DNA of 64,000 nucleotides from Pseudomonas phage Pa_WF01: the sequence record OQ848593.1; one strand, written 5' to 3'. A model generated the notes under the pieces. That model was not told where the DNA came from. It was given only the letters and a program-made list of their open reading frames with translations, and ran no database searches. Position 1 is the stretch's first letter; the number at the start of each line of letters is the position of its first letter. Both the position numbers and the translations under genes were made by a program. Shown in pieces: positions 1-63,858 of this stretch.

Positions 1-1286
1 ACAGCCGTCTGCACCTTGTTCTTGGTGCTCGCCGGACCCTTGTGCACCACGATGCTGGAGCCACGGTGACCGGTGATCTCCACATGGTAGGCCGGTTCGC
101 TGTGCTGACCCGACAGAGCAGCTCCCAGCATGCGGGAAGCTTCCTTGATGTCGGTCATGCTGCGGTTGGCCTTCAGTGCACGCATGGCTTCGTCCGGCAG
201 TTCGAAGAGGATGTGGTAGGCGCGGACACGCATCTTGTTCGCGTCGTAGGACGGGACGGCGATCACGTCTTCCGGGGCCACCTTGGCCAGCACACACACG
301 TTGCCGCTGAAGCTGCCCAGGTACTGACGGCGAGCCACATGCAAGCCATTAGAGCACTCGTTGCGGCGATCCGGGTCCACGAGGGACTCGTTCATGCACA
401 CCAGAGTACTGACGCCTTGCGGCACCTTCTGCGAGTGGATGTCACGGTAGGAGAACTCCTTGTGGTCATCCGGGCCGCCTTTCAACAGCAGCTTGTAGAT
501 CACGATGCAACCATCATCGGCGATGGGGAGATCCCCACGTTCGATGAAGCGCATCAGATCTTGCACGCTGTGGCTGCGCTTGGCAGATACGGCACCAGCC
601 CGGCGAAGGAAGTTCTCGATGCCGACAGTGCTGCCCTTGGCTTTCGACTGAACAGCTGCGGTAAGCTGGGTCTTGAGCTTCTGAGCATCCGGCACGATGG
701 TTCCCTGGTCGGTCACGGCGATGATGGTGTCACCTTCGCCCACGTCATCATCCGGGTCTTCCGACTCTACGCCGTCTTCGCTGAGGTTCTCCAGGTCTGC
801 GGAACTGAACTGCGGGGCAGATGCCGGTACAGCGTGGGCCAGGATGTCATCCACAGCCTTGGCCAGTGCGGGATCCTTGATGGTGACCTTTTCGACCACC
901 TCTTCCACTACACCCTGCCCAGCATCCGCGTCCGGTGCGCAGTCGCCAGGAACCGCGCCAGCGGTGACGGGAGCGACGGGAGCAGCTGGCTCGGATGCGG
1001 AAGCTGCCGAGAAGAACTCTGCGACCTTCTTCTTCGCCACGCGGAAGAACCGCATGATGCCGCCGGACTTCTTCTCGGCGGCTTCGTAGACGTTGTTGAT
1101 GACCAGCAGGTCTTCGGAGTAGTCCACTTCACCACCCTGGCTCAGGATGGGGACGTACTTCTCGACGAAGATGGCGACACGGGGATCGCCTTGGGGGATA
1201 CGGATCTGCTCGGCAGACCCTTTCACGTACAACGTCAGGTACCTTTCGTCAAGGACAGCACCTACGACAGTTACTTTGTTGCTCAT
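1..1286 (-). CDS. rIIB-like protein (putative); the gene's 3-prime end lies beyond the window start
   Basis: Minus-strand reading frame open to the window edge. ATG at 1284-1286 is preceded by AAGGAGAAACCA. It lies immediately downstream of the rIIA-like gene, matching the T4/N4 rIIA-rIIB order. The call rests on synteny only; no diagnostic motif was seen. Confidence 0.4.
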   Translation of the reverse strand, partial: MSNKVTVVGAVLDERYLTLYVKGSAEQIRIPQGDPRVAIFVEKYVPILSQGGEVDYSEDLLVINNVYEAAEKKSGGIMRFFRVAKKKVAEFFSAASASEPAAPVAPVTAGAVPGDCAPDADAGQGVVEEVVEKVTIKDPALAKAVDDILAHAVPASAPQFSSADLENLSEDGVESEDPDDDVGEGDTIIAVTDQGTIVPDAQKLKTQLTAAVQSKAKGSTVGIENFLRRAGAVSAKRSHSVQDLMRFIERGDLPIADDGCIVIYKLLLKGGPDDHKEFSYRDIHSQKVPQGVSTLVCMNESLVDPDRRNECSNGLHVARRQYLGSFSGNVCVLAKVAPEDVIAVPSYDANKMRVRAYHILFELPDEAMRALKANRSMTDIKEASRMLGAALSGQHSEPAYHVEITGHRGSSIVVHKGPASTKNKVQTA

Positions 1287-13561: not shown

Positions 13562-13619
13562 TGGTTAGTCTCCTTTAAACGGGAAGATTAATAAATCTGG
13601 GAATGCATAACCCCAAATA

Positions 13620-13805
13620 TTACTCGGAAGGGGTCCACTCACCTACAAAGAGTAGAAGGGTATTGTGATACCCCATCATGGCTCGCATGAAGTCATGATG
13701 ACTGCCCCCAGGAAGCAGATGTCTTGCTTCTTCGAGGGCTTCTTTTAAGGAACTGTGGGTTGGGTAGAGCTTCTGCTCTACCGGACTGAAATCACTGAAA
13801 TACAT
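13620..13805 (-). CDS. hypothetical protein (61 aa) on a low-GC island
   Basis: ORF co-oriented with neighbours in an AT-richer stretch. Confidence 0.35.
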   Translation of the reverse strand: MYFSDFSPVEQKLYPTHSSLKEALEEARHLLPGGSHHDFMRAMMGYHNTLLLFVGEWTPSE

Positions 13806-13813
13806 TTAAACTC

Positions 13814-14044
13814 CTAGTAAAAAAAGCCATACTTGAGGAGGTCTTTAATACCCCTCCAAACTGACTTGGTAATCCTAAAAACCACAACCAGAAAAATAAG
13901 AGGCAATCCGATAGGCCATAAAATTCCTAACGCTGCTGAGCGGTCATCCTCAAGGCCACCGAAAAGTGCGTAATCCACGATTACAGCTGTTATGATAGCT
14001 GCCGCAAAGTAGGACGCTATCAATACCGCAATGGTACCTAACAT
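13814..14044 (-). CDS. small membrane protein (2 predicted TM helices)
   Basis: Start at MLGTIAV, preceded by AAGGAGACAACTT. Hydrophobic segments are evident. Confidence 0.45.
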   Translation of the reverse strand: MLGTIAVLIASYFAAAIITAVIVDYALFGGLEDDRSAALGILWPIGLPLIFLVVVFRITKSVWRGIKDLLKYGFFY

Positions 14045-14264
14045 AAGTTGTCTCCTTGGTTTAATACACACAGTAGAATGCCGACAGTTACTCAGTGACT
14101 GCATCCTGTGCAGTTTGGAAACTCGGCATTCTCTTTATGTACTAATAGTCTGACTAGACTGTCTCGCCTTATGCGACGCTATGCGCAGGGAGTCGTTTAA
14201 AGGATTAACGCTAATGCATGTCTCTTGCTCCTAAACCAATAAAAGAATGAACAAACAGGACAAG

Positions 14265-14281
14265 AGCGTACGGAGTACGCT
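14265..14281. repeat. perfect hairpin AGCGTAC-GGA-GTACGCT, copy 1
   Basis: Identical 17-mer at 17038-17054. Overlaps the stop codon of the - strand gene 14280..14504. Confidence 0.7.
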
Positions 14282-14504
14282 AATGAATAACCTGTTCTCC
14301 TGTGAGGTACATCATCCCATCTGTACCGAAGCGGCCCGCCAGCCAACCTCGGAAGAACCCATGAATCAAAGGGTTGTCAGCGTAGTCTCCGAGACGGCTA
14401 CGCTTACTCGCCAGTTCTTCAGGGGTGATGATTACCCCGGCGAAGGACCACACACAGTGGCGGTACTCTTCTTCAAATTCCTTTCGCAGTTCGTCGCTGA
14501 TCAC
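14280..14504 (-). CDS. hypothetical protein (74 aa) with GTG start overlapping the upstream stop (GTGA)
   Basis: The ORF-track version starts 66 nt earlier inside the upstream gene. GTGA coupling recurs elsewhere in this genome. Confidence 0.4.
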   Translation of the reverse strand: MISDELRKEFEEEYRHCVWSFAGVIITPEELASKRSRLGDYADNPLIHGFFRGWLAGRFGTDGMMYLTGEQVIH

Positions 14505-15016
14505 TTCAGCATAGAACGCAGGTTGTTCAGCAGTGCCTCGCCACCCTTCAGGGACTGGACGTACAAGCACGCATCGTAGACGGTTTCGTCCAGGCCATGC
14601 TTCTGAACATGCTCCTTGCCGAAGCCGAGGGCATCCAGTAGTTCAGCCAGCTTGTTGCTCATCTGGGTGACCACCGCATCTTTCAGGATGGTGGTGGTCT
14701 GGTCGTCTCCCTTCTTCACCTCGAATTGGGCGACAGCTTCCCCAGAGTCCATCATACCCTGGATGTTCTGGCCGGTGAGCAGTACGTCGCTCTGGTGTAG
14801 ACGACCCGGTTGCATGACCGGACACTTGACCTTGTTGGCTTCCCGTAACAGCGTTTCAACCTGACCGCTGAGGTTTTCCACCATCTTGTTGGTTGCATCG
14901 ATATCTTCGAGGAGGATATCTCGCTTGTTGTTGAGAACTTCTACCCGACGACGCAATCTCTGCATCTTGCCCTTCATGGCAGAGATCTCGTATTGAAACT
15001 TGTCTTCGCTCATCAT
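14501..15016 (-). CDS. coiled-coil hypothetical protein
   Basis: Start MMSEDK overlaps the upstream stop. Heptad-rich sequence. Confidence 0.5.
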   Translation of the reverse strand: MMSEDKFQYEISAMKGKMQRLRRRVEVLNNKRDILLEDIDATNKMVENLSGQVETLLREANKVKCPVMQPGRLHQSDVLLTGQNIQGMMDSGEAVAQFEVKKGDDQTTTILKDAVVTQMSNKLAELLDALGFGKEHVQKHGLDETVYDACLYVQSLKGGEALLNNLRSMLK

Positions 15017-15576
15017 CACTTGTTCACCCCGTAGAGTTGGAAATGGTCGTTCAGTTCGGTGTAGCGGCGGCCATGCTTGTCGATCACAGCGATCTCGAAG
15101 CAGGCATTGCCACACCAGTTGCGGTGGATGGCGGTACCGAGCTCTTCGATTGTGACCTTCTTCCTGACACGTTCACCCGGCTCCCCTGGAAGCATTACCA
15201 GGGTGCCGCCGATGTTCTGCTTGGTGCAGAACTTCACATGGTCGTGCGTTACCTGGGCATGGATCAACTGCCATGCACCGGCAGTTAAGGGATGACGTAC
15301 CCACTCCATGCCTTTCACGTACACCACATGGTTGACCACATTGACGCCGACACGATCATTGCGCACGATGAAGCCATGACGCACATAGAAGAAGGAGCCC
15401 TTCAGGGCGCTGTACAGCTTTCCTACAGACAAGCCAGTGATGTAACCGGTCTGCTGGTGTCCCCAATTGTCGTGGTAGGTGAACTCCACCAGCTTGCCGT
15501 CAGCCAGGAAGTACAGGCAGCGCTCGATGGGAACTTCTATGGGTTTACCGCGCTGAAACCAGGTGATCTTTTCCAT
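15016..15576 (-). CDS. hypothetical protein
   Basis: 186-aa ORF packed head-to-tail with neighbours. Confidence 0.5.
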   Translation of the reverse strand: MEKITWFQRGKPIEVPIERCLYFLADGKLVEFTYHDNWGHQQTGYITGLSVGKLYSALKGSFFYVRHGFIVRNDRVGVNVVNHVVYVKGMEWVRHPLTAGAWQLIHAQVTHDHVKFCTKQNIGGTLVMLPGEPGERVRKKVTIEELGTAIHRNWCGNACFEIAVIDKHGRRYTELNDHFQLYGVNK

Positions 15577-16130
15577 CAGCGCTTACCCTTGACCAGACGA
15601 CGATGAGCCTTCGTCAGGTTCTCGCAGGAACGCAGCAGCAGATGGGGATTGTTGCTCCGCTGGAAGTTGGTGTACTCACGCATGACAGCATGTACTAGGG
15701 TGTCCATGGTCAGTTCGGCATCGCTACGGCGCTGCTTGCGAACCTTGTCCTTGAGGATCTCGATCTCCTTCTTGGCTTCAGCCAGCTGCTTTTCCAGGCC
15801 GGTGTCCACAGGCTCGAAGACTGTCTCTTCCACGACGAGTACGGGAACTGTTTCCTGGTCTCCATGGAATGGCTTGGCGAGTTCAGAGATCTTCTTGTCA
15901 CGGGCCTCTACCGCCTTCTTCAGATCCTTGATCTGGTTCTGGAGACGGTAGTTGTCGCTCTGGGTACGCGCATATAGACGACGGTTAACACGCGCTTCTT
16001 CCCGCGCTTCCCGAATTTTGTTATCCATTACATCTATGATTTGATCTTTTCGCTGTACTACCGTCTCATGGTTTTCAATCAGGCTGGTCACTTTTTCATC
16101 GAAACGCTTGCGGGAAACGAATGGGATCAT
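15576..16130 (-). CDS. coiled-coil hypothetical protein
   Basis: 184 aa, rich in K/E/R heptads. Confidence 0.5.
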   Translation of the reverse strand: MIPFVSRKRFDEKVTSLIENHETVVQRKDQIIDVMDNKIREAREEARVNRRLYARTQSDNYRLQNQIKDLKKAVEARDKKISELAKPFHGDQETVPVLVVEETVFEPVDTGLEKQLAEAKKEIEILKDKVRKQRRSDAELTMDTLVHAVMREYTNFQRSNNPHLLLRSCENLTKAHRRLVKGKR

Positions 16131-16753
16131 TGGAGTTCTCCATCTAGATATACCTGAAGGAACTTTCCATTCAGGGTGTATTTGAGTTGAAGTGTGCTGC
16201 CCTCGTAAGCACGTACATGAAGATTCCGTACACGCATATAGATGTCGTACATGAGGTCAGCAACAGCGAAGTTGTCAGGGTATTTTCTACGGGCTGCCCT
16301 GTACCCAACACGAAGCCAATCCATAGCGGTACTTGCCGCTTCCTGGATCACCTTCCTTGCCACTGGTTTAGAGAGATACTGAACTTCTCTTTCTATGGCT
16401 TCTTCGACAAGCTTACGAAGAAGCGAGAGGAACTCTTCCTCTTCATCTCCCAGCTTGAAACGCTTGCCTACGTTGTCGATGAGAAAGTCATTCTCGATGA
16501 TGAACATGGTGATGTCGTAGTACATCACCTGCTCAGGACGGGGTTCTGAGCCTGGGAAGCGACTCCACCAAGCAGTTTCACCACGAAGCCACCACATAGC
16601 ACCGAAGGCCCGCAACTCCGCTTCTAGACCTTCAGTACTGTCGATGTGCTCGAACGAGTCATGGATGACTGTCAATGGATCTCCTGGCTCGAAGGTATGC
16701 ATATCCTCCATGAGCCAGCCGCCATCCTCGAAGACGAAGTTACGGACTTGCAT
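16127..16753 (-). CDS. hypothetical protein
   Basis: 208-aa ORF. Confidence 0.5.
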   Translation of the reverse strand: MQVRNFVFEDGGWLMEDMHTFEPGDPLTVIHDSFEHIDSTEGLEAELRAFGAMWWLRGETAWWSRFPGSEPRPEQVMYYDITMFIIENDFLIDNVGKRFKLGDEEEEFLSLLRKLVEEAIEREVQYLSKPVARKVIQEAASTAMDWLRVGYRAARRKYPDNFAVADLMYDIYMRVRNLHVRAYEGSTLQLKYTLNGKFLQVYLDGELQ

Positions 16754-16756
16754 GGC

Positions 16757-16981
16757 TTAGCTCCCGACGTGAGCGTTCAACTTCTGGAGTTCCTCGTAGA
16801 TGCCGTAGCCCAGGAACCAGAAACCGAAGGTCATACCGATGCCGACAGCAGCGCCCAGCATTACCAGCAGGGCCACGAGGCCGTTGTAGACTGTCAAGGC
16901 GGCGACTGCCACGACTACGAAGACCAGGACAGCAGCGATCCAAGCCATGGTGTCCAGGAATTTCAGGTACGATTTGCGCAT
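16757..16981 (-). CDS. small membrane protein (2 TM)
   Basis: 74 aa, strongly hydrophobic. Follows the hairpin at 17038-17054. Confidence 0.5.
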   Translation of the reverse strand: MRKSYLKFLDTMAWIAAVLVFVVVAVAALTVYNGLVALLVMLGAAVGIGMTFGFWFLGYGIYEELQKLNAHVGS

Positions 16982-17037
16982 GGTGTTACTCCTTCTTCAA
17001 TTGAATGAACTCACTGGAAATCAGCGAAAATGCAAAA

Positions 17038-17054
17038 AGCGTACGGAGTACGCT
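17038..17054 (-). terminator. hairpin AGCGTAC-GGA-GTACGCT followed on the - strand by TTTTTGCATTTT, copy 2
   Basis: Lies directly after the stop of 17054..17206. Looks like an intrinsic terminator, but the GGA loop also resembles an N4 vRNAP promoter hairpin. Confidence 0.55.
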
Positions 17055-17206
17055 CAACCCCTGTTCTTCACAATGCACTCTCCATGGGCATAGAAGAGAT
17101 TGAGGTAGAACTTGGGAGACTCTCCGAACTTCTTGGACCTCTCTTCTGCACTGGGGACCAGTACTATTGGCTTACCACAGTACTTGCATAGCCTGTGTTT
17201 ACTCAT
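17054..17206 (-). CDS. small zinc-ribbon-like protein (CxxC..HGEC)
   Basis: Start MSKHRL, preceded by GAGGGGAGCTTAGAAACC. Stop is followed by a hairpin plus T-run on the - strand. Confidence 0.4.
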   Translation of the reverse strand: MSKHRLCKYCGKPIVLVPSAEERSKKFGESPKFYLNLFYAHGECIVKNRG

Positions 17207-17220
17207 GGTTTCTAAGCTCC

Positions 17221-17258
17221 CCTCAAAAAAATAAGCGCCCGATCCCATTTCTGGGATC
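17221..17258 (-). terminator. GATCCCA-GAAA-TGGGATC hairpin, then GGGCGCTTA and T7 on the - strand
   Basis: Stem-loop with GNRA-type loop. The 9-nt spacer before the T-run is atypical. Confidence 0.35.
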
Positions 17259-17279
17259 AGGCAAATTCAGGTTCATGGA

Positions 17280-17294
17280 GCGTCTGGAAGACGC
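17280..17294. promoter_or_regulatory. hairpin GCGTCT-GGA-AGACGC (6-bp stem, GGA loop) immediately downstream of the RNAP II gene
   Basis: Perfect inverted repeat with the same loop triplet as the 17-mer hairpins. Confidence 0.4.
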
Positions 17295-17303
17295 CCACTC
17301 ACC

Positions 17304-18305
17304 TCAAGACAGCGCATACTCGCTTTCACGGATCAGTTCAGACAGGTTGTGGATCGACCGGTCGTAGCTGACATGGCTTCCAGTGATCTGGTGAACGATG
17401 TCGTCGAGGACGTTGCTGTCGGCCAGTTCGGCGAAGATGTTGATGTAGTGCTGGCGCATCTCGTTGCAGAAGTTCGGGTGGCACTTGAACTCATCGTGCA
17501 CGGTGACCAGTTCGAAGGGTTCGTGGACCCGCATGGTGTCCCACAGGGCACACAGAGCTTCCAGGTGGTCAGTCTCCAGCTGACGCACGTTGACAGCGTT
17601 GATGTGGTTGAAGATCACTGCATCGACCATGTTGGTGCGGTCGTACAGGTCTTCGTAGACAGCCAGCTTGGCGTCCCTGGCGACCTCGGCTTCGCACTTG
17701 CCAGAGTGACGGTCCATCAGTTCACCCCAAACCAACTGCATTACCTTGGTGATGGCTTCACGATCGTAGTTGCAACGACGGTGCATGGAACGAAGCACGT
17801 AGGCGTCGATGGAGTGGATGATGTTGGCAGCGTTCTTCACAGCACGCTCTACACCGCAGTCCTGCTTGTAGATGTACTCGAAGCTTGCACCATCCATCTC
17901 GTCCACTTCCACCCGAGTCTCGAACACGTCTACCGACTTGACTATGGAGTGGAAGTTGTCCGGCAGCACCCAGGAGTGCTTCATGGCGTAGGGCTGCCAA
18001 GTGTTGATCAGGTCATCCCGCATCTCGTTGGCGATGGGAGCTACCATCTCCACGCCTTGGTAGAAGGCTTCCAGTTCAGGAGTGTCCTCACCGAACAGGT
18101 TCTTCGGCTCAGCCTTCGAGCCATAGAAGTGAGTCATGGTTGCAGTCTTGATGTCCGACCGCTTGATCTCCCCTACCGACTCACCCAGGTGGGTGGAGGC
18201 AGCAGTGGTGACCAGGCTGTAGGCATCCTGACGGAAGCCAGTGTTGATGAGGTTGGTGGCTTGGGCACCAGATTCACAGCCACCCAGGGCCGACATTATC
18301 TGCAT
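17304..18305 (-). CDS. phage RNA polymerase II, C-terminal (catalytic palm) subunit, T7-like, N4 gp16-like
   Basis: Motif B-like MTHFYGSK and motif C VHDEF. 333 aa fits the N4 heterodimeric RNAP II. Confidence 0.7.
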   Translation of the reverse strand: MQIMSALGGCESGAQATNLINTGFRQDAYSLVTTAASTHLGESVGEIKRSDIKTATMTHFYGSKAEPKNLFGEDTPELEAFYQGVEMVAPIANEMRDDLINTWQPYAMKHSWVLPDNFHSIVKSVDVFETRVEVDEMDGASFEYIYKQDCGVERAVKNAANIIHSIDAYVLRSMHRRCNYDREAITKVMQLVWGELMDRHSGKCEAEVARDAKLAVYEDLYDRTNMVDAVIFNHINAVNVRQLETDHLEALCALWDTMRVHEPFELVTVHDEFKCHPNFCNEMRQHYINIFAELADSNVLDDIVHQITGSHVSYDRSIHNLSELIRESEYALS

Positions 18306-18327: not shown

Positions 18328-18996
18328 TTAATCTTCTGCCGTGTCAGCAGGACGTGGGAGATTTCCAAATATCCAACCTTTCAAAGGTTTCGTCGGTGCA
18401 GGTTTGTGCTGATTGCACTCCCGCATGCGATTGGCTATTTGATGTTCCTTAAGTCCCAAAGTAGGTGCTACATCTTTCTTGGTTTGATCGTGGATTTCTA
18501 CGTAAACCCCTTCTGGGGTCACGTAGTACCAAGGCTGGAATGCTGTATTTGAGGTACCAGCATGGCCCTTGTCTTTGCACTTAGTTCCACGAATCTTTTC
18601 AGCCGTCGCTGCATGAGCAACAATCATCGCTGGGGTGCGATTACCACTATAGCGACGGCTGAAAGTTTTACCTGCTTCAGTACGATCCACACTGATGCCT
18701 TTGTTCCAGCTGACGGAACCATGGCAGTCATGCGTTGCAACACGCTGGTTGTACCAGTTGGGTGACGCAACACAGTTGTGTTCTTCGATGTAACTCCGTT
18801 CGAAGTCCATCAACTCTTGGCGAGTATTGAAGGTTCTCAAGATGGTTTTCACAGGCGGGTTGTCTTTTCGGTCCACCGGTAAGCCCCTACCAGATCCGAG
18901 ATACGTGGTATCTAATTCTGGCGGTAGCTTGCACGAGCGGGCACCTATGTAGTACATCCCGTCTGCGAAAGTAAGCAAGTAAGCGTAGTGGTTCAT
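18328..18996 (-). CDS. GIY-YIG homing endonuclease
   Basis: YAYLLTFADGMYYIGARS..YLGSG with a downstream R/E/N set. ATG preceded by AGGAGGTCAC. Located in a low-GC stretch. Confidence 0.7.
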   Translation of the reverse strand: MNHYAYLLTFADGMYYIGARSCKLPPELDTTYLGSGRGLPVDRKDNPPVKTILRTFNTRQELMDFERSYIEEHNCVASPNWYNQRVATHDCHGSVSWNKGISVDRTEAGKTFSRRYSGNRTPAMIVAHAATAEKIRGTKCKDKGHAGTSNTAFQPWYYVTPEGVYVEIHDQTKKDVAPTLGLKEHQIANRMRECNQHKPAPTKPLKGWIFGNLPRPADTAED

Positions 18997-19302
18997 GTGA
19001 CCTCCTAGTTGTTCTGGAGTGCATATGTTACCACGCCCTACTGACACTGCTGTGAATTTCTCCACAGGCAAGACTATATCTTCACCCCAGAAGGGTGCTT
19101 CCCATTTCCACCCACTTGGGTGTACGGCCTAAGCCTAGTCGTTGAACCTTCTCCCATACGGAGCTTGGCTGCTGATTGCCCAATCCACACACTTTTCAAA
19201 CCTTCGCTTTGCCTTTCGGCTCGCAGTGGTAGCGTGGCTCTAAGGGGTTCCCAGCAATTAAGGAAGTGATCGACATGGATTGCTCCATGAAGGGGCTAGA
19301 AA

Positions 19303-19545
19303 TCAACCCGAGCAGCAGGCATCCAGCCCTACGAGGTGGCCAACAGGCTCACCACGCTGAGCAGCACGGATGGCCATGACAGCCTTGAGGTACTGCGGTC
19401 GAGTCTTCTCGTTGCACTCCAGATTCTCCAGGTTGTCGAAGTTGTCGTAGCACCATTGGATGCGCTGTTCGAAGAGCCATTTGTCATGGCCCATTTGGTT
19501 TGCAGCGTCGATCAGAAGGTATTCGAAAGCGGTGTAAGGGGTCAT
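19303..19545 (-). CDS. hypothetical protein
   Basis: 80-aa ORF on the low-GC island. Confidence 0.4.
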   Translation of the reverse strand: MTPYTAFEYLLIDAANQMGHDKWLFEQRIQWCYDNFDNLENLECNEKTRPQYLKAVMAIRAAQRGEPVGHLVGLDACCSG

Positions 19546-20143: not shown

Positions 20144-20419
20144 TTACCTCAGTAGTCTATCGAGTCCCCAGATTATTATCATTGCCTTGAGTTCTTCTGG
20201 TAGTTCATGGAAGCTTTCAAGCTTGTTCCTTTCAGTCATCGTAACCTTGTACCAGCTATTAGAAGCCAAGTAATTGAAGGTTATACAGTTATATCTTCGA
20301 TCTTCTTTGGTTGGATCAATGAAATCCCCAACCAGATCCAATATCGAACTGTGAACCGTGTAGGCCCAAATACCGTCCTTCTCCTGAAACGAATAGTGTG
20401 ACATTAATAACTCCTTCAT
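20144..20419 (-). CDS. hypothetical protein, paralog-like of 19821..20138
   Basis: 91-aa ORF whose C-terminus reads AMIIIWGLD. Confidence 0.4.
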   Translation of the reverse strand: MKELLMSHYSFQEKDGIWAYTVHSSILDLVGDFIDPTKEDRRYNCITFNYLASNSWYKVTMTERNKLESFHELPEELKAMIIIWGLDRLLR

Positions 20420-21348
20420 TTGATCTTCAAGTGTTCGGGTACACCAGTGACTACCTTCTTGTTGGCCAAGTCGAGCATGGCTTTCTTGTAAGGAGACCCC
20501 TGGGTACTGATGTGGTAGCCCTGTGCATACACACGACCGCGCTTGTCGTACTTGTGCAGGAGATAGAACCGATTACCTTGCTGAACCATAAGCTTGTACA
20601 TCTCATGCGACTCAGAGACGAACCTGTACCAGTCGTCTTTCTTGTCCTGCGTATCCAAGTACTTGTGGGACTCTTCTTCTACGGTGCTCAAGAACTCAGT
20701 GTTCAGGCACAACTCAACAGCGTTCATCTTGTCCAGCACATCGAGACAGATGTCTTCGTTGTGGTGGTTGTTGTTCAGGATAAGGGATTCCTTCTCCAGA
20801 GTAAGATGAAGTTTCGACTTGTTCCCAGTGAGCTTGGATGGTTTGCACACCATAGGAGGAAGGTACATAGCTCGCTCAACAGCATGTTGAAGCTTCTCCG
20901 GTAGTTGAATGTTAGAGATGACCTTGTATGTACCATACTTGGACACCTGCTCAATGTCGTACACGTCAAGCTCAGCCAGCACTGCAACCATCTCAGCGAT
21001 GGTCTTGATGCTGTCAGCCTTGTCGTCGAAGCCAAGTACACCAGCTAGCTTGGCTGTGAAGCTGATGAACATGTCCGGTACCTGACAGTACGCAGACGCT
21101 ACGATAATCTCGAACACAATGTGCTCAAGGTCCAGGTTACGAACAGTCTCCATACGAAGGTTCTTGGAGGCATAGCTGTACTCAGTGGTGCGATACTTCT
21201 CCAACAGTGCTATTCCCTGCTCCATCAGTGCAGGAAGGTCTTCGTCACCGCGAATGAACTCACGGATGTACCCGTCAATGTGCGCCCGAGCAAAGCGGTA
21301 CTCATTGGCGCGTTGCATATCTTCGGGCAGCATGTGGGTAATGGTCAT
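20416..21348 (-). CDS. phage RNA polymerase II, N-terminal subunit, T7-like, N4 gp15-like
   Basis: Block DKRGRVYAQGYHISTQGSPYKKAMLDLA matches T7 RNAP DWRGRVYAVSMFNPQGNDMTKGLLTLA. ATG at MTITHM, preceded by AAGGAATCGTTCC. Confidence 0.7.
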   Translation of the reverse strand: MTITHMLPEDMQRANEYRFARAHIDGYIREFIRGDEDLPALMEQGIALLEKYRTTEYSYASKNLRMETVRNLDLEHIVFEIIVASAYCQVPDMFISFTAKLAGVLGFDDKADSIKTIAEMVAVLAELDVYDIEQVSKYGTYKVISNIQLPEKLQHAVERAMYLPPMVCKPSKLTGNKSKLHLTLEKESLILNNNHHNEDICLDVLDKMNAVELCLNTEFLSTVEEESHKYLDTQDKKDDWYRFVSESHEMYKLMVQQGNRFYLLHKYDKRGRVYAQGYHISTQGSPYKKAMLDLANKKVVTGVPEHLKIK

Positions 21349-23312: not shown

Positions 23313-23603
23313 TTACAGGTCCAGCTGAAGCTCGGACTTGTCACGCACGACGCGGAAGGACAGGATCAGGCGCGAGCGCAGGTTCTCGATGCGCTTGACC
23401 AGATCCTTGTCGTCCTTGGCTTCGGCCAGGTACTCGTGCAGCTGTGCTTCGACGGCTTCGCTCAGGCGCAGCGGAATGCCATTGCCCAGGCGAACCGGAT
23501 CACCGCCACGGGTGCCGATGGAGATGTTGATGAAGCTGGCAGCACGGGTGTCGTCGGACTGAGCAGCGGTGTTGGTACGAGCGTTGGATTTCTTGAGTGC
23601 CAT
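23313..23603 (-). CDS. hypothetical early protein in an isolated transcription unit
   Basis: 96-aa ORF bracketed by a hairpin upstream and a strong terminator downstream. Confidence 0.45.
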   Translation of the reverse strand: MALKKSNARTNTAAQSDDTRAASFINISIGTRGGDPVRLGNGIPLRLSEAVEAQLHEYLAEAKDDKDLVKRIENLRSRLILSFRVVRDKSELQLDL

Positions 23604-23694
23604 GATTCAGGTTCCTTGTAGGGAGAGGTAGTAGATTCAGATCAGAAGTGGTTCAGCCAGAAGGCCATTACACAGGCGTAGCCTGCTCTTGCTC

Positions 23695-23880: not shown

Positions 23881-23952
23881 GATGAAATTCCTAAGTAAAC
23901 AGTGAGTTGAGATGGTTTGGATTACCACCCCATGGCCGTAGGCCATGAGTAC

Positions 23953-25437: not shown

Positions 25438-25686
25438 TCAGATCCTCACGTCAGCAAAGCCAATTGGGTCAGCGGGACAGCCCCGCTCATTGCAGAAGTC
25501 TGCGTACTCTTGGTCCAGTTTGTTCCAGACACGCTGGAACTCTTCCATGGATTGGATGGGACTGAAGCCATGCTGGATCAACAGGAACAGACACTGGTCA
25601 TACTGGAAATCCCTTGCCCAGCACTGGCACGCGATGTCATAAACGGTGATATTACGGACACGTTTGATACGAGCGTACTTGTACAT
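25438..25686 (-). CDS. hypothetical Cys-rich small protein
   Basis: 82 aa with several CxxC-like pairs. Confidence 0.4.
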   Translation of the reverse strand: MYKYARIKRVRNITVYDIACQCWARDFQYDQCLFLLIQHGFSPIQSMEEFQRVWNKLDQEYADFCNERGCPADPIGFADVRI

Positions 25687-26373: not shown

Positions 26374-26540
26374 GGTTGATACCTATAGAGGACTATGAAG
26401 TAAGTACAGAATCGAATACCACTCCATCACCGAAGGTGTAGAGGAACATCAGACACTACCCAAGTAGAGATAGGGATACGGTGTGTATCGTGTAGATGGG
26501 AAAGTGATGACAAGGTATAGGGTTGAGAAAGGTAGAGATG

Positions 26541-27033: not shown

Positions 27034-27364
27034 GGTAGTACTCCAGAGTAGTGAGATGTTGATGTGAGGACAGGATTAATCCACAGCACAGCCGAAGGCT
27101 TCTCTTGTTCTAGAAGTACAGACAGTTGATTGGGTAGAAGGAGAGTTAAACAAGGTGGGGTAGGTAGCGCGGGAATTCCAAAACTCAAGAGGTACCGGGG
27201 GGGATAACCGGATTTGGAGAGCCGCAGACTGAAGTACTGAATCCGTACTTAGCTAAACGAAAATCCCTCAGATCCGCGATAGCTGAATCCAGACTTCTAT
27301 GATGAAAATCCCTACAACCCAAATCACTTCCATCTCCCCAAACCAATCCCTTTCCCCCTAGCTC

Positions 27365-44508: not shown

Positions 44509-47500
44509 ATGGCTGATTTCGACTTGGATCAATTCCTGTCGGATCGTCAAGAGGCGAATGCCGGGGCTACCCCGGCATTCGACGCTCTGGACTTTGCCAG
44601 TGCGGGCCTGGACATGAAGGGTTCGCAGAAGGCTTACGACCTCGACGGCATCCGCGAGCGCAAAAAGCGCAACGTGGAAGAATCCCTCATCGGCAAGATG
44701 GGTATCACCCCTGGTGCTGCTGGCACTGAGATCCTCAACGCTGCTGCTTCCTTCGTATCCGGTACTGGCCGTGCTCTCGGCGACGTGATTGCTCTGCCGA
44801 TCAACGCTGCTGCTGACATGGGTCAGGCTGGCGTAACCAACGAAGCCATCGAAGCCTACAACCGCTACGTCTCCGGCCAGATGCAGGAAGGCGATGAAGC
44901 CATCCTGAGCCAGACTGCTGCCGGTGACGACGGTGTTCCCCAGACCATGCTGCAACGTATGCAAGGTGTGGACGAACTCCGCAAGCTTTCTACCAACGTG
45001 GACAAGTTCTTCGATTGGTCGAGCATCGTAGACACTACTCGCCGTGACCAACTGAGCGACGACATCGCTGATGCGACTGCTGGTGGCGTAGAACGTCTCC
45101 GCAATGCAGGTGAGTCCTTCAGCCGTGGCGAGATTCTGGATGGCTTGGTGCAAGGTGCACTCGGTGTTGGCCAGACCGCTGCTACCGCTATCGGTGCATC
45201 GGCAACCAACCCGCTGGCAGTCGGCGAGTACACTGTGGAAAACGCTCCGCAGATGCTGGCCTATGCCGCTAACCCTGTGCTGGGTGCTGCTACCAACGTG
45301 GGCTACGCCTCGGATGAATACCGTGAAGGCATCACCGAGTACCAGGCTGAGAACCAAGGCCAGCTGCCGGATGCTGACGATCGTCTGAAGATGGGTCTTG
45401 CTGCTGCTTCTCTGGCAGTAGCTGAGCAGGTAGCCGATGCTGGCATCCTGCGTGGTATCCGTGGTGAAGGTGGTGGTTTGATCCGCTCTACTCTTGGTTC
45501 CAGCGCTCGTGAAGGCGTGACCGAGGGTTACCAAACCTGGGGTGAGAACGTTGCTCACCTGAAAGACACCAGCCTGGAAGAGATCGTCGAAGCTGCAACC
45601 ATCGGTGCTGCTGTCGGCGGAACCATGAACATCGGTGGCCGTGCTGCTGTAGGTGCCCGCTCTGGTGCTACCCGTGCTGAGGCTGCTTTGGCTTCGCGTG
45701 AAGCTGTGAATGCTGCCCGTGAAACCGGCGACATCTCTGCCCTGACCGATGTGACCTCGGAGTCCTATAACCCTGCTGGTGCAGTGGTAGTTCTCCAGGA
45801 ACAAGTCATGGCTGACGGTGTGACCCAAGAGGTCAAGGACCGTGCCCTGGAGCAGGCTGACACCATCGAGCAGGAAGCTGCCCAGCGTGTATCTCAGCTG
45901 GAGCAGGAACAAGTACTGTTCAGCGAAGAAGGTCTGGCCAAGGTAGAGCAAGCCATCGAACAACGTGAGCAGGCCAAGCAAGGTGCTGATGAAGCTACCG
46001 TTGCTCGCCTGGACGAAGAACTGGCCAACCTGAGCGGCGTACGTGAGCAGATCCTCAACGTCACCCCCGAGCAACGCCAAGCTCAAGCCAAGGAACTGAA
46101 GGATGCCCAGCAGGTACTGACCGCTACCCGTGACGCCATCAAGCGTTTCCAAGTGGAAGCCGCTCCGAAGGCTGCCGAGGTAGAGACCTTGGTTCAGGAA
46201 GCTGCTGTACAACCGGAAGCCTCCGAGCGTCTGGTCACCCTGACCATGATCAACCCGGATGCACTGAGCCTGGAGCAGGTGGATGCTCTGGTAGCTGACA
46301 CCAGCAATACTCTGACCACTGAGCAGCGTGCATCCCTGCGTAGCTTCAGCGAAGCACAGGTTGCACTCAACGAACTCAAGGGTCTGAGCGGTGTTCGCAC
46401 TGACATCGAGACTGGTGGTGATGGCTTCAAAGGTCTGTCCCAGTACCGTAACGCTGTGCGTATGGCCCTGATGAACGGCAACGAAGAAGCTGCTGCTGGT
46501 CAGGTAGACCAACTGCGTGCTTTTGCTGACAGTCGTGTGGCGAAGTTCAACGCCATTGATGCTGCGTACCAGCAAGTCAAAGGTACCGATAACTCCATCC
46601 GTATCGTACGTGATGAAGCCGGTAACTGGACCGAGGCACCGGAGTCCATGACTGCACGCCAACTGAAGTCGGCTGGTGGTCTGGAGATCTCAGCCCGTTC
46701 CTTCAAGCTGCGTGATGCTGTAGCACTGGAAGCCACTGCACTGTCCCGCTCGGCTGAGTCTCTGGGTGAACTGGTCAAGGCCGGTCCTATTGCTCGTCCG
46801 GCCCCTGTGGTACAAGAAGCTGCCCCCGTACAGGAAGCGCCTGTACAGGTGGCTGAAGAGGTGGCCCCGGTAGAGGCGCCTATCGCTCAGGTCACTGAAG
46901 ATGTCCCAGTCAGTGAAGCCGAGTCGATCCAGGCAGAACCTTCTACCGAGGCCGAAACTGGTGAACTCACGGCTGTCCGTGAGGGTGAAGCTGTGCGTGG
47001 TCAGGAAGTTGCCGCCGAGAACTACCAGACTACCAACCTGGTTTCCGCCTTCTTCCAGCAGTCCCCGGCTCGCAATGACGGTGACACTCAGAAGCCTCTG
47101 GTAGCAGTCAAAGACTTCGCTACCAAGATCCGCACTGGTGAAGGTCGCATGGCTGAGTTCGCTGGTGTGAAGAGCTTCACCGGCCAGCAACAGTCCGCCA
47201 TCAAGCAGTTCATGAAGTTCCAGCGTGCTGCCAAGCCGATCATCGAGCGTACGCTGAAGCCATACACCTCGAAGACCAGCGATGCCAGCCGCTACTACTT
47301 CCGTGACTACGCTCAGTTCCTGGTGAACGCTGACGGTACTCTGGACGAGAACCTGGCCACTGCCATTGCCTACGGTGCGTACGACTGGGCTATCGATGCG
47401 GCCAACAACCTGGTCAACACCGATGCCGGTATCAATGCCATCCTGGGCAAGGACTCCGATGATGAAGTCTCCCCTGCTGCCTATGCAGTCCTGGGCAACG

Positions 47501-50500
47501 TAGGTACTCGACAGGCCACCGCAGCTTCCCAGCTGGGTGCCAAGATCGTTGATGTCCTTGGTTTGGAAGTCCTGCCGAATGCTCCTGTGAACGAGCGTGC
47601 ACGTCTGGAAGCTTCCCTGGGTGAGCATGCCTTGGCTCTTCTGGTGAAGATGGGCGTGGCGAAGATCACCACTGTCAGCGACGCCAAGCTGAAGTCCCTG
47701 ATGGACTCCAATGAACCGGCCAACCCCCGCGTCAAGCACTACTTCCTGACCCCGGTCAGTGAGCGTGTAGACGGCAAGCTGGTTCCGGGTGCAGTTGCTC
47801 GCCAGATCCGTGAAGCCAATACCGGTAGCCAGTCCATCCTGGCCAAGCTGTTCGGTTCGACTGAAGGTCAGACTGAGCCGAGCTTCACTCCTGTGCCCTT
47901 CACCCAGAAGAACGCCAAGCGTACTCAGCAGCCTGTTCCCAAGGAACTGGCCAAGATCCTGGACGACGCAGGTAAGCGTCCCATGCGTCTTCGCCAGGAC
48001 ATGTACCAAGTGTGGGGCAACCTGTCCGAGAACGCATTGGCCACCATCGCTGGTGCTGTAGACATCGAAGGCGGGTTCGTACACAAGGCCAACCGTGCTG
48101 GCACTCAAGCCAAGAACGATGGTCTGGTACGTCAGATCGACAACTTCAACGAGTTCTTCGGCCGCATCCAAGAGGTTTCTGACCTTGGTTTGGAGCAGCC
48201 GCTGTACTTCGACCGGAGCGTGTGGAAGCCTCAGCGTGTTGGTTTGACTGCCAACATGATCAACCCGCAGACCAGCAAAGTGCATCGTCACATGCTGGCA
48301 ATGGAAGGCTGGGAGAACACCATCAATCTGTCCAACAAGGCAGAGATGGATAGCTTCAAGCTTCGCGTACTGGAGTCCTTCGGTGTGAAGACCGAGGGCA
48401 ACAACACTTCGAAAGTGCTGGCCAAGTACGACAGCAAGGTGAACACCCCGGCGATCCAGGCTGGTGTATCTGCCCTGGCTGAGATCCTCCGTGGTGAGGC
48501 CCAAGACACTGTGGCCAACGAGTCCGCAATCCTGGCAGCCGTAGCCGAAGCTGGTGAGAAGTTCTTCAGCTTGGATGGCTTGGTAGCACTGGCTCAAGAG
48601 AAGATCGCCCGTGATAACGGTGCTGAGTCCTTCACTACCCAGCTGCTCGGCGAAGTGGACGGTGTGACCAACGGTCCTATGCTGTCCCTGCTGATGTCTG
48701 GTGCCAAGGGTTTTGACACTCTGAACCAGGGTGGTTTCTTCAGCCTGGAAGATCCGTACACCCAGTTCAACGACTACAAGGCACAGGGCAACCTGGACCT
48801 GTACGAGGGCACCATCAAGGCTGTGCTGGACCGTCTGGGCAATGAACCGCTGCTGTCCTCTGTGGAAGTCATCACTGGTGTGCTGACCAACGAGGAAGGC
48901 GGTGTATCGTCCAAGGGCCGTAACGTCATCAAGAAGCCCCTGACCGCAATGATGTTTGGTTCCAACACCAAGACTGCTGTCAGCGGTATGGCTGATGCCT
49001 TCATCGAAACCATCTACTCCAAGATGGAAGACGCTGCCAATGCTGGTGACCAAGCTGCCCTGTCCAAGGTGATCTCTGCTGTAAACAGCCTGATCGCCTC
49101 GAAGAACAGAGACAAGCGTCAGCTGTGGCCTACCGACATGGGCTTCGAGCAAGCACTGAATACCGTCTACTCTCCGGTCCAGCAGACTGCCATCAAGGCA
49201 GCCTTCTACGACCTGCTGGGTAGCAAGGTAGAGAGTGCCCTGAACGACACCTACGAGGTATTCATCGCTCGCCGGGACACCATCAACAAGACTGCGAACA
49301 TGGCTTTCCAGATGTACGAAGCTGTCTTCCAGGCTCGTCGTGATGAGCTATTGGCTTCGGCCAACCTGCCTCGTGGCAATGATGGCCAGCCTTTCGCTGA
49401 CCTCACTCGTGCCCAGATCGACCAGATCCGTAACGAGTTGAAGGACATGGAGCCGATCCTGCACACCGCTTTCTCGAAAGCCAGCGGTGACTTGGATTCT
49501 GGGATGCTGATGGCGAAGACCCGCCGTGAACTGAACGACTCTCCCCTGTACCGCTCGGAAGTCCACTTCGCTGAACCTCTGGAGTTCACCGATGAGGAAG
49601 GCCGCAAGCAGTCTGTGAAGAGCTTCCGTGCCAGTGGCATGACCACCGTCAACGAAGGTCCGGGTGTAGCTCCGTTCATCACTGCTACTCACGCAGGTGA
49701 CTCGTTCATCTCCCACAATGCACTGATGGGCGAAGATGTCCTGAACATCCACGATGCTCACGGTGTGGGCGTACTGGGTATGGATGCTGCTGGTCAGCGT
49801 CTGAACGAACAGACCTTCAAGCTGATGCTGAATTACTCGGCAGCCAGTGAGATGGTTTCGACCTTCGAGCGTACCCTCGCTGGCTTCAGCAAGTGGGTAC
49901 AGGATCCGCAGGTTGCACGTCAGTTCGGCAAGTACCTGGAAAGCCAGAAGACTACCGTCTCCACTCAGCTGGCCAGCATCCGTCACGTCGCTGAACAGGC
50001 TGACACCGACAAGCTGAACATGCTGGCCAACATGCGTGCAGTGGGTCAGTACGCCACTGATGGCGGTAGTTACATCGTCACCGATGCTGACCGTGCTGCT
50101 GCTGTGAAGGCCCGTGAAGAGATCGGTAGCACCTTCAACCCTGAAGCGGAAACGATGGCTGATGCTATCGACGCTCAGCTGAAGGCTACTCCGCGTGAAG
50201 CCAAGCCCGCTGCTCGTAAGCCTCTGCGCAATGACTCGGTACAGTCCCTGGCTCCGGCTACTACGCTGAACACCATGGACCGCACCAAGGCTGAAGGTCA
50301 GCTGCAACAGGACATTCAGCAGGTAGCCCAGGTGATGAAGAAGTCCAACCTGAGCTTGGAGTCTGCCAAGGAAGTCCTGCCGGAAGATCGTGCTGCTGAA
50401 GTGGTCCAGGCCGTTCAACAGAACAGCCGTGCCAAGACCTCGGTATGGGGTGAACTGGGTCAGCCGGTAATTCCGTCTGACCAAGCACTGGTGGATCTAC

Positions 50501-53500
50501 TTACCGAAACCAATGACCTGACCACTCGTGGTCTGGCTGAGGCTCTGATAGCCCGCACCAACGATCCTTTCCGTAAGCAGGTGCTTCGTGCTGCTCTACG
50601 GTCCATCCGTGAAGATGTACCGGTCAAGCTGGTCACCTCTACCACTGGCCCTGACGGTGCAGTTGGTGAGGGTGTGAGCAAGGCTCGTGGTTGGTACGCA
50701 ACCCGTGGCAACTTCGAGGCTCTCTACGTGAAGAGTCCTGAGTTCGTAGAGTCTGGCATCACTGAAGAGATGCTGACCCATGAACTGCTGCACGTTAGCC
50801 TGGGTCGTACCATCCAGCGCGAACTGGACAAGAAACAATCCAATGCCAACTACGACTCTGCTACTTGGCGTATGGTCAATGACCTGGAGATGATCCGTGC
50901 TCGTGCCAGCGACATGCTGAGCAAGAACGGTGGCTTGTCTTCCAAATACGCCAACGCTGTCTCGAACGTGCATGAGCTTGTCAGCTGGGGCATGACCAAC
51001 CAAGGCTTCCAGGAAGAAGTCCTGAAGAAGTTGGAGATGCCTGCTGGTAAGCGTGACGCTGGTTTCACTGACGGGCTGCTGCGGTTCATTCGTAACCTGA
51101 CTGCCCTGCTGTTCCGTGACACCAAGCCGTCCGATACCAATGCCATGGCTTTGGTGATCAGCAATACCTCTGGCTTGTTCGCCGAAGCTGCTGCACAGAT
51201 GGCCAAGCGTAGCGACCTGACCTTGAAGTACGAGGACGCTGTAGATCAGGTCAACGCGATGAGCAGTGAACAGATCTTCAATGCCCTGGAGAGCGAGAAG
51301 ACCCCGCTTACCGAGGCTCATAGCAACAAGCTGAAGTCTGTCCTGAACAGCATCGTCACCGAACTTTACGGTCCCATGGGTGCATTCCGCAACGAGGTTG
51401 CTCGTGGTCAAGCACTGACCACCACTGATGCTGTCCTGAAGGCTCTGGACACTGGCCGCCTGCCCTTCGCCTCTCAGGCATTGGCTTCGGCGTTCATTAT
51501 CAGCCCGCAGGAAGCCTACGTGCTGGAACAGGTTGAGGCTACTGTGGCCACCACCCTGAACAGCAACGATGGAATCTTCATCCGCAGTAGCCTGGAGAAC
51601 CTCTGGCGTGAAGCCAAGGATCGCCTGACTGCTAAGGACTTCTTCGCTGGTGATTGGGACCAAGCCACCCAAGCAGAGAAGGATGTGGCACAGGAGAAGT
51701 ACAACTTCCTGTTCCGTCCTGAGCGTGTTGGTTCCCGTAGTGACTACCTGAGCCGCTTTGCTGCCCTGGGTGTAGCGAGCCAAGAAGTAGCGAACCTGCT
51801 TCAGTTCACTACCCGTAGCAGCGAGAAGTCCTTGGCTGGTATGCCACTGGCTACTCGTCTGGTTGAGATGTTCCGCCGTCTGCTTACCCGCCTGGGTCAG
51901 CTGCACGACAAGACTCGTCCTGGTGAGGTGGCTGAGAGCCGACTGTTCACCCTGGTGGATCGTCTGGTGGATATCGAAGCCAAGCGTCGTGGCCGTCTGG
52001 CTGACCAGAAAGTGGGTGCCCTGGACCAGGTGGAAACTGCCCTGGCGAACACTGGTGAAGCCATCAAGGACAACCTGAACCGGATCGCTGAATCTACCTT
52101 CTTCACTCAGTCGAGCAGCCCCTTTGTTCGGGTAGCTGGCAAGACCATAAGCACCATCACCAATGAGCGTGTTGGCTTGGTCCTGGACGGTATCACTCGC
52201 ATCCGTGACAACGCTTTCAAGAGCCAACACGGCATGGCTATGCAGGTAGTGAACGAGATGCGTGGTGCACACGAGGGTAATCTCGCTGCACACACTCTGT
52301 TCAAGCAAGCCAAGTCCAACGAGATGGCTCGTAAACAGCACATCGAGTACACCGCTGCGATGATCAATGAAGGCTTCAAGGACAATGGCCAGTACCTGAG
52401 CACTGAAGACCGTGCTGCTCTGACCAAAGGTTTCCTGCGTACCAACATGGGTAACCTTCGTGAAGCCCTGGGTATGGATCGGTTGAAGGAAGTCCTTCTG
52501 GACAATGGCGAATTCGCCAATCTCCGCAAAGACCTCGAAGACCAACTGCTGGCATTGCCGAACGGTCAATATTTCCTGGGTGCTGTGAAGGATCTGGCTT
52601 ACCACCGTGTGATTGGTGGCAACGTAAGCCCGAACCTGATGCTGAACAGTGCGAACATCGCAGACATGCTCGGTACCAAGCGTGTGCTCCAGTCCTCCAA
52701 GGCAGATCGTGCGAAAGCCATCGAACTGCTGGACCAGCTGCAAGCTGTCTATGGGTGGGAGTACTCTGGTTCCCAGGTGAAGAGCCGCGCCCGTGAAGTG
52801 CTGAAGACCGAATCCAACCGTACCGATGGCAACGGTGTGGATCTGATCCTGGCCATGCACCATGGCTTGGGTAAGCGCTCCAAGGATGCCCTGTTCCAAG
52901 GCACCGAACGTCTGTACACCGATGGTTATGTACCGGACATCTTCGACTCCAAGATCGAAGTGCTGGCCGTAGACCGCAGTGACCTGCCCTACTTCCAGAA
53001 GCGTGGCTACGCTGTTGCTGGTGACGTGCAGGTAGACCAACGTGCTGGTCTGGAATCCGACAAGGTTCTGGTGACCCGTCGTGGTAGTGGTCAGGTTGGC
53101 TTGCTGACTGGTGCGATGAGCTACACCGGTGTGCATGCTCGTGGTACCAAGGTGGACCGTCAGGCTACCAACATGCTGTCGTCCGCTCCGGGAACTGCGA
53201 AGAACGCCATCACTACCATCAAGCGCAACATTGCACAGGATGTGAGTGACATGTTCCTGCGTGATCGTTCCTACGATCCTCGCCAGCAGAAGCCTGGCCG
53301 AGTATCTCCTGTGGTGAACCCGAATGGAGCCATCGTGGACTACCGCTATACCATGACTGAACACAACCGTGACAGTCTGCTGGATCGTGATAACTCCATG
53401 GAACAGGTGCTTGGTACTCTTGCAGGTCAGATCGTGGACAAGGTTGACTCCGCAATCCAGAACGCTGACGTTGTTCGTGCTATGTACGACCAGTTCCGCG

Positions 53501-59666: not shown

Positions 59667-59714
59667 GATTGACTCCATGTTGGAAGCGAAAGGGTGCCGG
59701 AGGCACCCCTAAGC

Positions 59715-63709: not shown

Positions 63710-63747
63710 GAAAACCTCCTGGTTAAAAAATGACCACGAAAGTGTCT

Positions 63748-63762: not shown

Positions 63763-63858
63763 ACTCTCACCCCTCTTCTTTCGAAGGGGTTCGCCCCTGG
63801 AAGGGGCCGTCCCAGGGCGACCACTAGCGCTCACCCTCCCCCTTCTCCATCCAGGGAA

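Follow-up and report, generated by a model that had tools for sequence, protein, structure and literature searches.

Three short inverted repeats lying between positions 14,265 and 17,294 of a 64,000-nucleotide (nt) stretch of Pseudomonas phage Pa_WF01 (sequence record OQ848593.1; the whole stretch is referred to below as the window) are probably members of the N4-type family of DNA-hairpin promoters, which are read by the phage's own RNA polymerases. Our analysis established their sequences, enrichment, strand bias, conservation, synteny and compensatory changes, and the start sites to which they are compared were mapped by others in phage LUZ7. From these data, we infer initiation in this phage, the exact first transcribed nucleotide (+1), the acting polymerase and termination. 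The three hairpins are as follows:

14265..14281, minus strand: hairpin copy 1, the same 17-mer as copy 2, overlapping the TAG stop codon of the open reading frame (ORF) 14280..14504 (minus strand; the ORF is alternatively 14280..14570).

17038..17054, minus strand: hairpin copy 2, coding strand AGCGTAC-TCC-GTACGCT followed by TTTTTG, with the GGA loop of the template closed by C:G.

17280..17294, minus strand: third hairpin, coding strand GCGTCT-TCC-AGACGC followed by TCCATGAACC, without a T-run.

A scan of the window placed AGCGTACGGAGTACGCT on the plus strand at 14265-14281 and 17038-17054, with no mismatch at either site, and GCGTCTGGAAGACGC at 17280-17294. The stems are perfect (7, 7 and 6 base pairs (bp) at 14265, 17038 and 17280, respectively), and each is capped on the plus strand by the 3-nt loop GGA. 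The orientation of the window is reversed: early and middle genes are on the minus strand, the plus strand is their template, and the loop on the coding strand reads TCC. Copy 2 overlaps the TGA stop codon of a 50-amino-acid (aa) ORF (17054..17206, minus strand), and the third hairpin lies 10 nt past the stop (17304) of the C-terminal part of the large subunit of RNA polymerase II (RNAPII). Copies 1 and 2 are upstream of small hydrophobic proteins (13814..14044 and 16757..16981), and the product of the operon downstream of copy 2 is a protein with two transmembrane segments (2-TM protein). On the minus strand, copy 2 is followed by the T-run TTTTTGCATTTT and copy 1 by CTTGTCCTGTTTG, a poor T-run. 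A preliminary description of the region had reported an identical 17-mer at two sites with a third GGA-loop hairpin, the position of both copies at stop codons of minus-strand genes and upstream of small membrane proteins, and a T-run after the 17038 copy; every one of these details was borne out.

Elsewhere in the window, the 17-mer has no match at up to three mismatches apart from the palindrome's own reverse matches (chance expectation 0.11). A segmental duplication was considered as the origin of the two copies and rejected: the identity ends exactly at the 17-nt hairpin, and the flanking genes and proteins are unrelated. An exact repeat of this kind would fit the recognition of both stem and loop by a protein.

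Enrichment was assessed by counting perfect hairpins with 3-nt loops in the window against a chance baseline of 400 first-order Markov shuffles. GGA-loop hairpins on the plus strand numbered nine at stems of at least 5 bp, five at 6 bp or more and three at 7 bp or more, where the shuffles gave expectations of 1.3, 0.39 and 0.07, and none of the 400 shuffles equalled the observed counts. GGA is the commonest plus-strand loop among all perfect 3-nt-loop hairpins of the window, and the opposite orientation (TCC on the plus strand) was found once, once and not at all at the same three stem lengths. The five hairpins with stems of at least 6 bp (14265, 17038, 17280, 59692 and 63793) are all intergenic. 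Extension of the search to the rest of the window, along the lines suggested earlier, yielded no third copy of the 17-mer and two more hairpins of the family:

59692..59708, minus strand: family member lying between the primase gene and a RecA/Sak4-like gene, GGGTGCC-TCC-GGCACCC with TTTCG after the stem.

63793..63807, minus strand: family member GCCCCT-TCC-AGGGGC, in the divergent gap that separates the replication block, whose first gene begins at ATG 63709, from a tail-fibre gene of the opposite strand.

The pair closing the GGA loop is C:G at 14265, 17038 and 59692 (C-GGA-G) and T:A at 17280 and 63793 (T-GGA-A).

The evidence for initiation comes from LUZ7, a phage of the sister genus, in which primary 5' ends and 3' ends were mapped by ONT-cappable-seq (Putzeys et al. 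2022, PMC9163698; bioRxiv 10.1101/2022.03.18.484859, Tables S2/S3); the tabulated positions were checked here against the LUZ7 sequence. Promoter PE7 starts at 8259, 14 nt below the loop centre of GCGTTC-TCC-GAACGC and just after the RNAPII large-subunit gene, and PE8 starts at 9543, 14 nt below AGCGTTC-TCC-GAACGCT and upstream of the membrane-protein gene orf29 (bioRxiv 10.1101/2022.03.18.484859). The same data set shows TCC-containing loops in all four LUZ7 middle promoters, namely, PM1 (GTCC), PM2 (GCCCCC-TCC-GGGGGC), PM3 (GCCGCT-TCC-AGCGGC) and PM4 (ACAACC-TCC-GGTTGT), with starts at +14/15, of which that of PM2 was confirmed by primer extension in LUZ7; in the strong early promoters PE1, PE3, PE4 and PE5, the loop is TTC or TAC and transcription begins with GG at +12/13. 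Seven TCC-loop hairpins with stems of at least 5 bp are present on the LUZ7 Watson strand; mapped starts lie at +14/+15 of five, and a 3' end was called at only one, PM3. The PE7, PE8, PM2 and PM4 hairpins have no called 3' end in these data.

Pairwise alignment pairs 17280 with PE7, 17038 with PE8, 59692 with PM3 (and the 3' end T41) and 63793 with PM2. The TCC loop is unchanged in each pair, and the stems differ by compensatory pair changes: two at 17280 (GCGTCT/AGACGC vs GCGTTC/GAACGC in PE7), one at 17038 (AGCGTAC/GTACGCT vs AGCGTTC/GAACGCT in PE8), at least three at 59692 (GGGTGCC/GGCACCC vs GCCGCT/AGCGGC in PM3) and one at 63793 (GCCCCT/AGGGGC vs GCCCCC/GGGGGC in PM2). Moreover, copy 2 is followed by a membrane-protein gene orthologous to LUZ7 orf29, which PE8 drives (45% identity, E = 1e-20). 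The suggestion of the preliminary description that the hairpins are promoters outside the classical early region is supported by these positional homologues, which are the mapped starts PE7 and PE8. By homology, the following starts are predicted:

17033 (G, +13 from the loop centre), minus strand: predicted start for copy 2; the leader to ATG 16981 would be 52 nt, vs 53 nt in LUZ7.

17274 (G, +13) or 17273 (A, +14), minus strand: predicted start for the 17280 hairpin; the leader would be 68 nt, vs 72 nt in LUZ7.

59687 (G, +13), minus strand: predicted start for the 59692 hairpin; the 5' untranslated region would be 21 nt, vs 20 nt in LUZ7.

N4 itself offers the precedent for the loop. In the N4 sequence, P2 (557-573) is AAGAAGC-TCC-GCTTCTT and P3 (4546-4562) is AAGCTGC-TCC-GCAGCTT, the coding TCC being GGA on the template, and both start with G at +11. 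The N4 virion RNA polymerase (vRNAP) reads -11A/G, -10G, -8G and +1C on the template hairpin, in which -10G and -12A form a sheared pair (PMC4496689). The statement in the preliminary description that the N4 P2 loop is of the GGA type is therefore correct (N4 sequence; PMC4496689), and P3 is of the same type.

The window belongs to a Pseudomonas aeruginosa N4-like phage of the genus Litunavirus and is 90-96% identical to 71 records, including PASB7, PA26, YH6 and LIT1. In IMG/VR, which contributed only four to five further, near-identical genomes, the exact 17-mer occurs in Litunavirus genomes only, with exactly two copies per complete genome. The three hairpins and their immediate flanks are invariant in nine Litunavirus genomes, and nearby coding and leader positions vary. 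Both hairpins at the 17280 and 17038 positions are kept in three further Luzseptimaviruses despite the presence of different genes between them. In the distant Pseudomonas phage Littlefix, which represents a third genus and has an RNAPII large subunit 42% identical, TCC is by far the most frequent triloop: the early/middle coding strand carries all 12 of its TCC-loop hairpins, each with a stem of 6 bp or more. Hairpins of this kind, with unrelated stems, occupy three syntenic sites: one follows the RNAPII large-subunit gene (CGTCAC-TCC-GTGACG), one follows the primase, and one lies in the divergent gap ahead of the replication block. The TCC triloop is fixed over ~23 sites in three genera while the stems vary freely. 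In N4, the RNAPII gene gp16 is not followed by a hairpin of this type, and the post-RNAPII position is therefore not universal in Schitoviridae.

Several observations weigh against the promoter interpretation. N4 requires G at -8 of the template, and this position is A in copies 1 and 2 and C in the 17280 hairpin; because the accepted early promoters of LIT1 and LUZ7 also lack -8G, this contact is probably specific to N4. Nearest-neighbour DNA folding gives equal energies on both strands and does not favour the template, so the special stability of GNA loops is taken from the N4 literature only. For copy 1, the nearest G is at +12 (14261), LUZ7 has no counterpart, and the leader is 217 nt long; 63793 has no G from +12 to +15. 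The PE7 start is weak in LUZ7 (197 reads per million), and that of PM3 (39375) lies 1 nt after the 3' end T41 (39374; efficiency 0.54-0.68) and is possibly a processing site. Covariation within the genus is uninformative, the hairpins being invariant, and all of the covariation comes from the between-genus comparison of a few sites. We found no nucleotide-resolution mapping of Litunavirus start sites in the literature. Finally, the 17038 hairpin meets the terminator consensus, and a strong-looking terminator lies 11 nt past the start predicted for 17280:

17226..17263, minus strand: 12-bp stem-loop (17236-17263) with the T-run CTTATTTTTTT, of intrinsic-terminator shape, between the third hairpin and the 50-aa ORF.

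A start just upstream of this stem-loop is not contradictory, because its positional homologue in LUZ7, T12, stops only 6-20% of transcription.

These data raise another question: which polymerase would read the hairpins? The gene map of the window, whose annotation was transferred from relatives, includes both RNAPII subunits and a homologue of the RNAPII cofactor:

17304..18305, minus strand: RNAPII large subunit, C-terminal 333 aa (N4 gp16-like), annotation from relatives.

19303..19545, minus strand: RNAPII large subunit, N-terminal 80 aa, annotation from relatives.

20416..21348, minus strand: RNAPII small subunit, 72% identical to LUZ7 gp20.

23313..23603, minus strand: Drc homologue, single-stranded DNA (ssDNA)-binding cofactor of RNAPII, 38% identical to LUZ7 gp14 (E = 3e-14; PMC7145618).

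For contrast, the early promoters of LIT1, Pe1-Pe3, have the coding loops TTC, TAC and TAC (Ceyssens et al. 2010, PMC3715699), and their counterparts in the window are as follows:

27090..27100, minus strand: Pe1, AGCC-TTC-GGCT, with TGG at +12..14 from the loop centre.

23931..23947, minus strand: Pe2, CATGGCC-TAC-GGCCATG, with TGG at +12..14.

23673..23685, minus strand: Pe3, CAGGC-TAC-GCCTG, with TGG at +12..14, upstream of the Drc homologue.

We lean slightly towards RNAPII with its cofactor Drc, i.e., the 'middle' type of LUZ7. Neither the window nor LUZ7 has a TCC-class hairpin in its early region, and Littlefix has one; the first members of the class come directly after the RNAPII large-subunit gene. 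Compared with the TTC/TAC early class, the TCC class has longer stems with more GC and is without the +1G+2G ('TGG'). A TCC-containing loop is present in each of the four LUZ7 promoters first seen at the middle stage. A different assignment, in which the injected vRNAP reads the hairpins as true early promoters lying beyond the classical early region, appears less likely to us. It is favoured by the detection of LUZ7 PE7 and PE8 at 5 min, where they were labelled early, and by the fact that the N4 vRNAP uses GGA loops, P2 and P3 having exactly the template C-GGA-G loop and a G start; these two points tell against the lean towards RNAPII. DNA entry is, moreover, transcription dependent in N4-like phages (background in PMC3715699), and distal sites of the same class may seem 'middle' only because of their later entry. 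However, the strong vRNAP promoters in the early regions of the window and LUZ7 have TTC or TAC loops followed by TGG, the TCC class of LUZ7 starts at +14/15 rather than +12/13 and without +2G, and, at 5 min, PE1 exceeds PE7 and PE8 in strength by a factor of 20-200. The difference in spacing between the LUZ7 classes was discarded as a polymerase marker, as both classes have G at +13 in the window.

Another important question is whether the hairpins could be ordinary intrinsic terminators that act at the RNA level only, with the shared sequence due to coincidence or local homogenisation. We consider this unlikely. Each hairpin is at or just past a stop codon, and the RNA would form a stable GC-rich hairpin downstream of a gene; the 17038 hairpin, with an 8-bp stem and TTTGCATTTT, was called by a terminator-consensus scan. 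In LIT1, the factor-independent terminator T2, GCGTACTCCGTACGCTTTTT, is the 17038 copy, and T7 is the 59692 element, both predicted in 2010 (Ceyssens et al. 2010, PMC3715699 Table S2). In LUZ7, T41 ends 6 nt after the PM3 stem. On the other hand, 14265, 17280 and 63793 lack a T-run and were not called by the scan; a T-run follows one of the three hairpins first described and approximately two of the five family members. The 63793 hairpin lies in a divergent gap with no co-directional upstream gene that it could terminate, and the same is true in the relative 575P-3. A separate element of true terminator shape is present at 17236-17263. Terminators need no invariant UCC triloop, which is what the three genera display, and strand-specific enrichment is not a property of terminators. 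The preliminary description had named 3' ends at all three hairpins with no initiation nearby as the outcome expected of terminators; the LUZ7 homologues show the opposite, with primary 5' ends at PE7 and PE8, as at PM2 and PM4, and no 3' ends. The loop of T7 is given as GCC in the published table and is TCC in the LIT1 sequence (NC_013692, 39591); GCC was thus rejected as a break in the invariance of the loop, the table entry being a transcription error.

The two functions are compatible at some of the sites. The 17038 hairpin (and 59692) may also terminate part of the incoming transcription, as PM3/T41 of LUZ7 appears to do, and 14265 and 17280 do not fit a terminator. The dual function proposed in the preliminary description receives indirect support at 17038 from the consensus call, LIT1 T2 and PM3/T41. 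A hairpin followed by a short T/C-rich spacer before G is the promoter architecture in N4, LUZ7, Littlefix and the window; such promoters look like a hairpin with a T-run, and earlier annotation was therefore misled.

Hairpin-loop GGA is the core of Rsm/Csr binding sites. Signals at the RNA level, either a UCC loop marking RNase cleavage ~14 nt downstream or antisense GGA loops bound by an RsmA/CsrA-type protein, would account for this core and for the PM3 5' end that abuts the T41 3' end in the manner of a cleavage signature, but they are highly improbable: the LUZ7 starts derive from 5'-triphosphate enrichment, which excludes processed ends (PMC9163698), the hairpin is not part of the transcripts, which begin past it, Rsm sites are ANGGA loops of 5-6 nt rather than triloops, the plus strand is barely transcribed in the region until late, and Rfam families gave no match at E<=1 in 13000-18000.

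As promoters, the elements could act as follows. The inverted repeat would be extruded under negative supercoiling with the help of an ssDNA-binding protein, and the template strand would fold into a stem of 6-7 bp with 5'-GGA-3' as its triloop; in N4, this loop contains a sheared G:A pair, and the polymerase makes direct contact with the loop. A phage RNA polymerase of the single-subunit type would bind the hairpin and, beyond a short pyrimidine-rich spacer, start at a G ~13-14 nt below the loop centre. In this way, 17280 would restart transcription just past the RNAPII genes, 17038 would drive the operon of the 2-TM protein, and 14265 would drive the next operon with a small membrane protein. 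Read from upstream, the palindrome would yield an RNA hairpin and a U-rich spacer, and 17038 (and 59692) would therefore probably also terminate in part.

A broader proposal is put forward tentatively, and we rate it as somewhat less than an even chance: the GGA triloop would be the general RNAPII-Drc promoter signal in Pseudomonas Schitoviridae (Litunavirus, Luzseptimavirus and Littlefixvirus), distinct from the GAA/GTA loop plus TGG of vRNAP; PE7 and PE8 would be the first middle promoters instead of early ones; and each element would also be a leaky terminator, with the middle region partitioned by stop/restart cassettes. If true, such cassettes would explain the long-standing annotation of these promoters as terminators. 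For LIT1-type phages, a group that includes several phages used in therapy, it was explicitly stated that middle promoters could not be identified (PMC9163698). Here, five candidate sites are assigned in a Litunavirus and given predicted start nucleotides; two of these sites had been published as terminators. The motif known from four LUZ7 sites is widened to ~23 sites in three genera with one invariant feature, the TCC/GGA triloop. With this set, the way in which a T7-like split polymerase and its ssDNA-binding cofactor locate promoters can be tested directly and at low cost. A further lesson is that a hairpin with a T-run in N4-like genomes should not be annotated as a terminator by default. 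The hairpin-promoter principle is already established, and the present result is an extension of it rather than a discovery.

Further observations were made near these elements. The 217-nt leader between copy 1 and ATG 14044 (14045-14261, minus strand) does not fold significantly above shuffles (z = -1.9); its features are a long imperfect hairpin (~14062-14130) and, together with a Shine-Dalgarno sequence, a mini-ORF of two codons (AGGAG..ATG CAT TAG). At 17280 and 63793, a second stem-loop (17236-17263 and 63768-63789) lies within ~10-15 nt of the predicted start, and LUZ7 has the same arrangement, with T12 (6-20%) and T37 (2-35%); these structures may be leaky terminators or may stabilise the 5' end. 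Upstream of ATG 63709, the block TTATATATAAGAC...TTTCGTG.TCATTTTTTAACCAGGAGG (~63712-63757, minus strand) is almost identical in LUZ7 within surroundings of ~74% identity and might have a conserved role in regulation or translation. A 247-aa ORF (18328..19071), for which the annotation in phPLST and VL1 is endonuclease or homing endonuclease, splits the RNAPII large-subunit gene, which is intact (413 aa) in PASB7 and 575P-3; the split may represent an intron or the insertion of a homing endonuclease in an essential polymerase gene.

Four minus-strand TCC-loop hairpins of the window have 5-bp stems (379-391, 17150-17162, 56064-76 and 59058-70), at least three of them inside coding sequence (rIIB, the 50-aa ORF and a RecA-like gene). 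That at 59058, CGTCT-TCC-AGACG, is shared with the 17280 hairpin and is kept in 575P-3. All four may be chance matches or weak internal promoters similar to LUZ7 PM1 and PM4. The 15-mer of PM4 (ACAACC-TCC-GGTTGT) is found at LUZ7 66578-66592 and Littlefix 25640-25654, antisense to different late genes. At 26428-26438 (minus strand), CACC-TTC-GGTG with TGG at +12..14 is a candidate fourth vRNAP promoter outside the three LIT1 promoters published in 2010. The longest perfect 3-nt-loop hairpin of the window (12 bp, CGAATGCCGGGG-CTA-CCCCGGCATTCG, 44555-44581, plus strand) is located 46 nt inside the 5' end of the vRNAP ORF (44509..54705).

Compared with known systems, the window shares with N4 P1-P3 a template-strand hairpin with a stem of 5-7 bp and a 3-nt loop made up of a 5' G, a central purine and a 3' A, and the C-GGA-G loop of copies 1 and 2 is identical to that of P2 and P3. 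N4 also has a T-tract between the stem and +1, and its first RNA base is G, as predicted for the window. However, transcription starts 11 nt from the loop centre in N4 vs a predicted 13-14 nt here, and the N4 sites are all in the early region, whereas the class found in the window occurs only after the RNAPII genes, and the polymerase may differ. The RNAPII middle promoters of N4 likewise serve genes downstream of the RNAPII genes and need an ssDNA-binding cofactor; unlike the elements described here, they are AT-rich, carry gp2/gp1-dependent motifs, start with T and have no hairpin (PMC9163698). With respect to LUZ7 PE7, PE8 and PM1-PM4, the nearest G is at +13 (or +12) in the window vs +14/15, the T-run at 17038 is longer than that of PE8, and the 14265 copy has no equivalent. 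The two families nevertheless have in common a GC-rich stem of 6-7 bp, a coding TCC triloop, a pyrimidine-rich spacer and a G start, which is predicted for the window. They are also syntenic: in both, hairpins follow the RNAPII large subunit and the primase and precede the orf29-like membrane protein and the replication block. Moreover, the 15-nt cores of PE7 and PE8 are identical to each other, which parallels the paired identical hairpins of the window.

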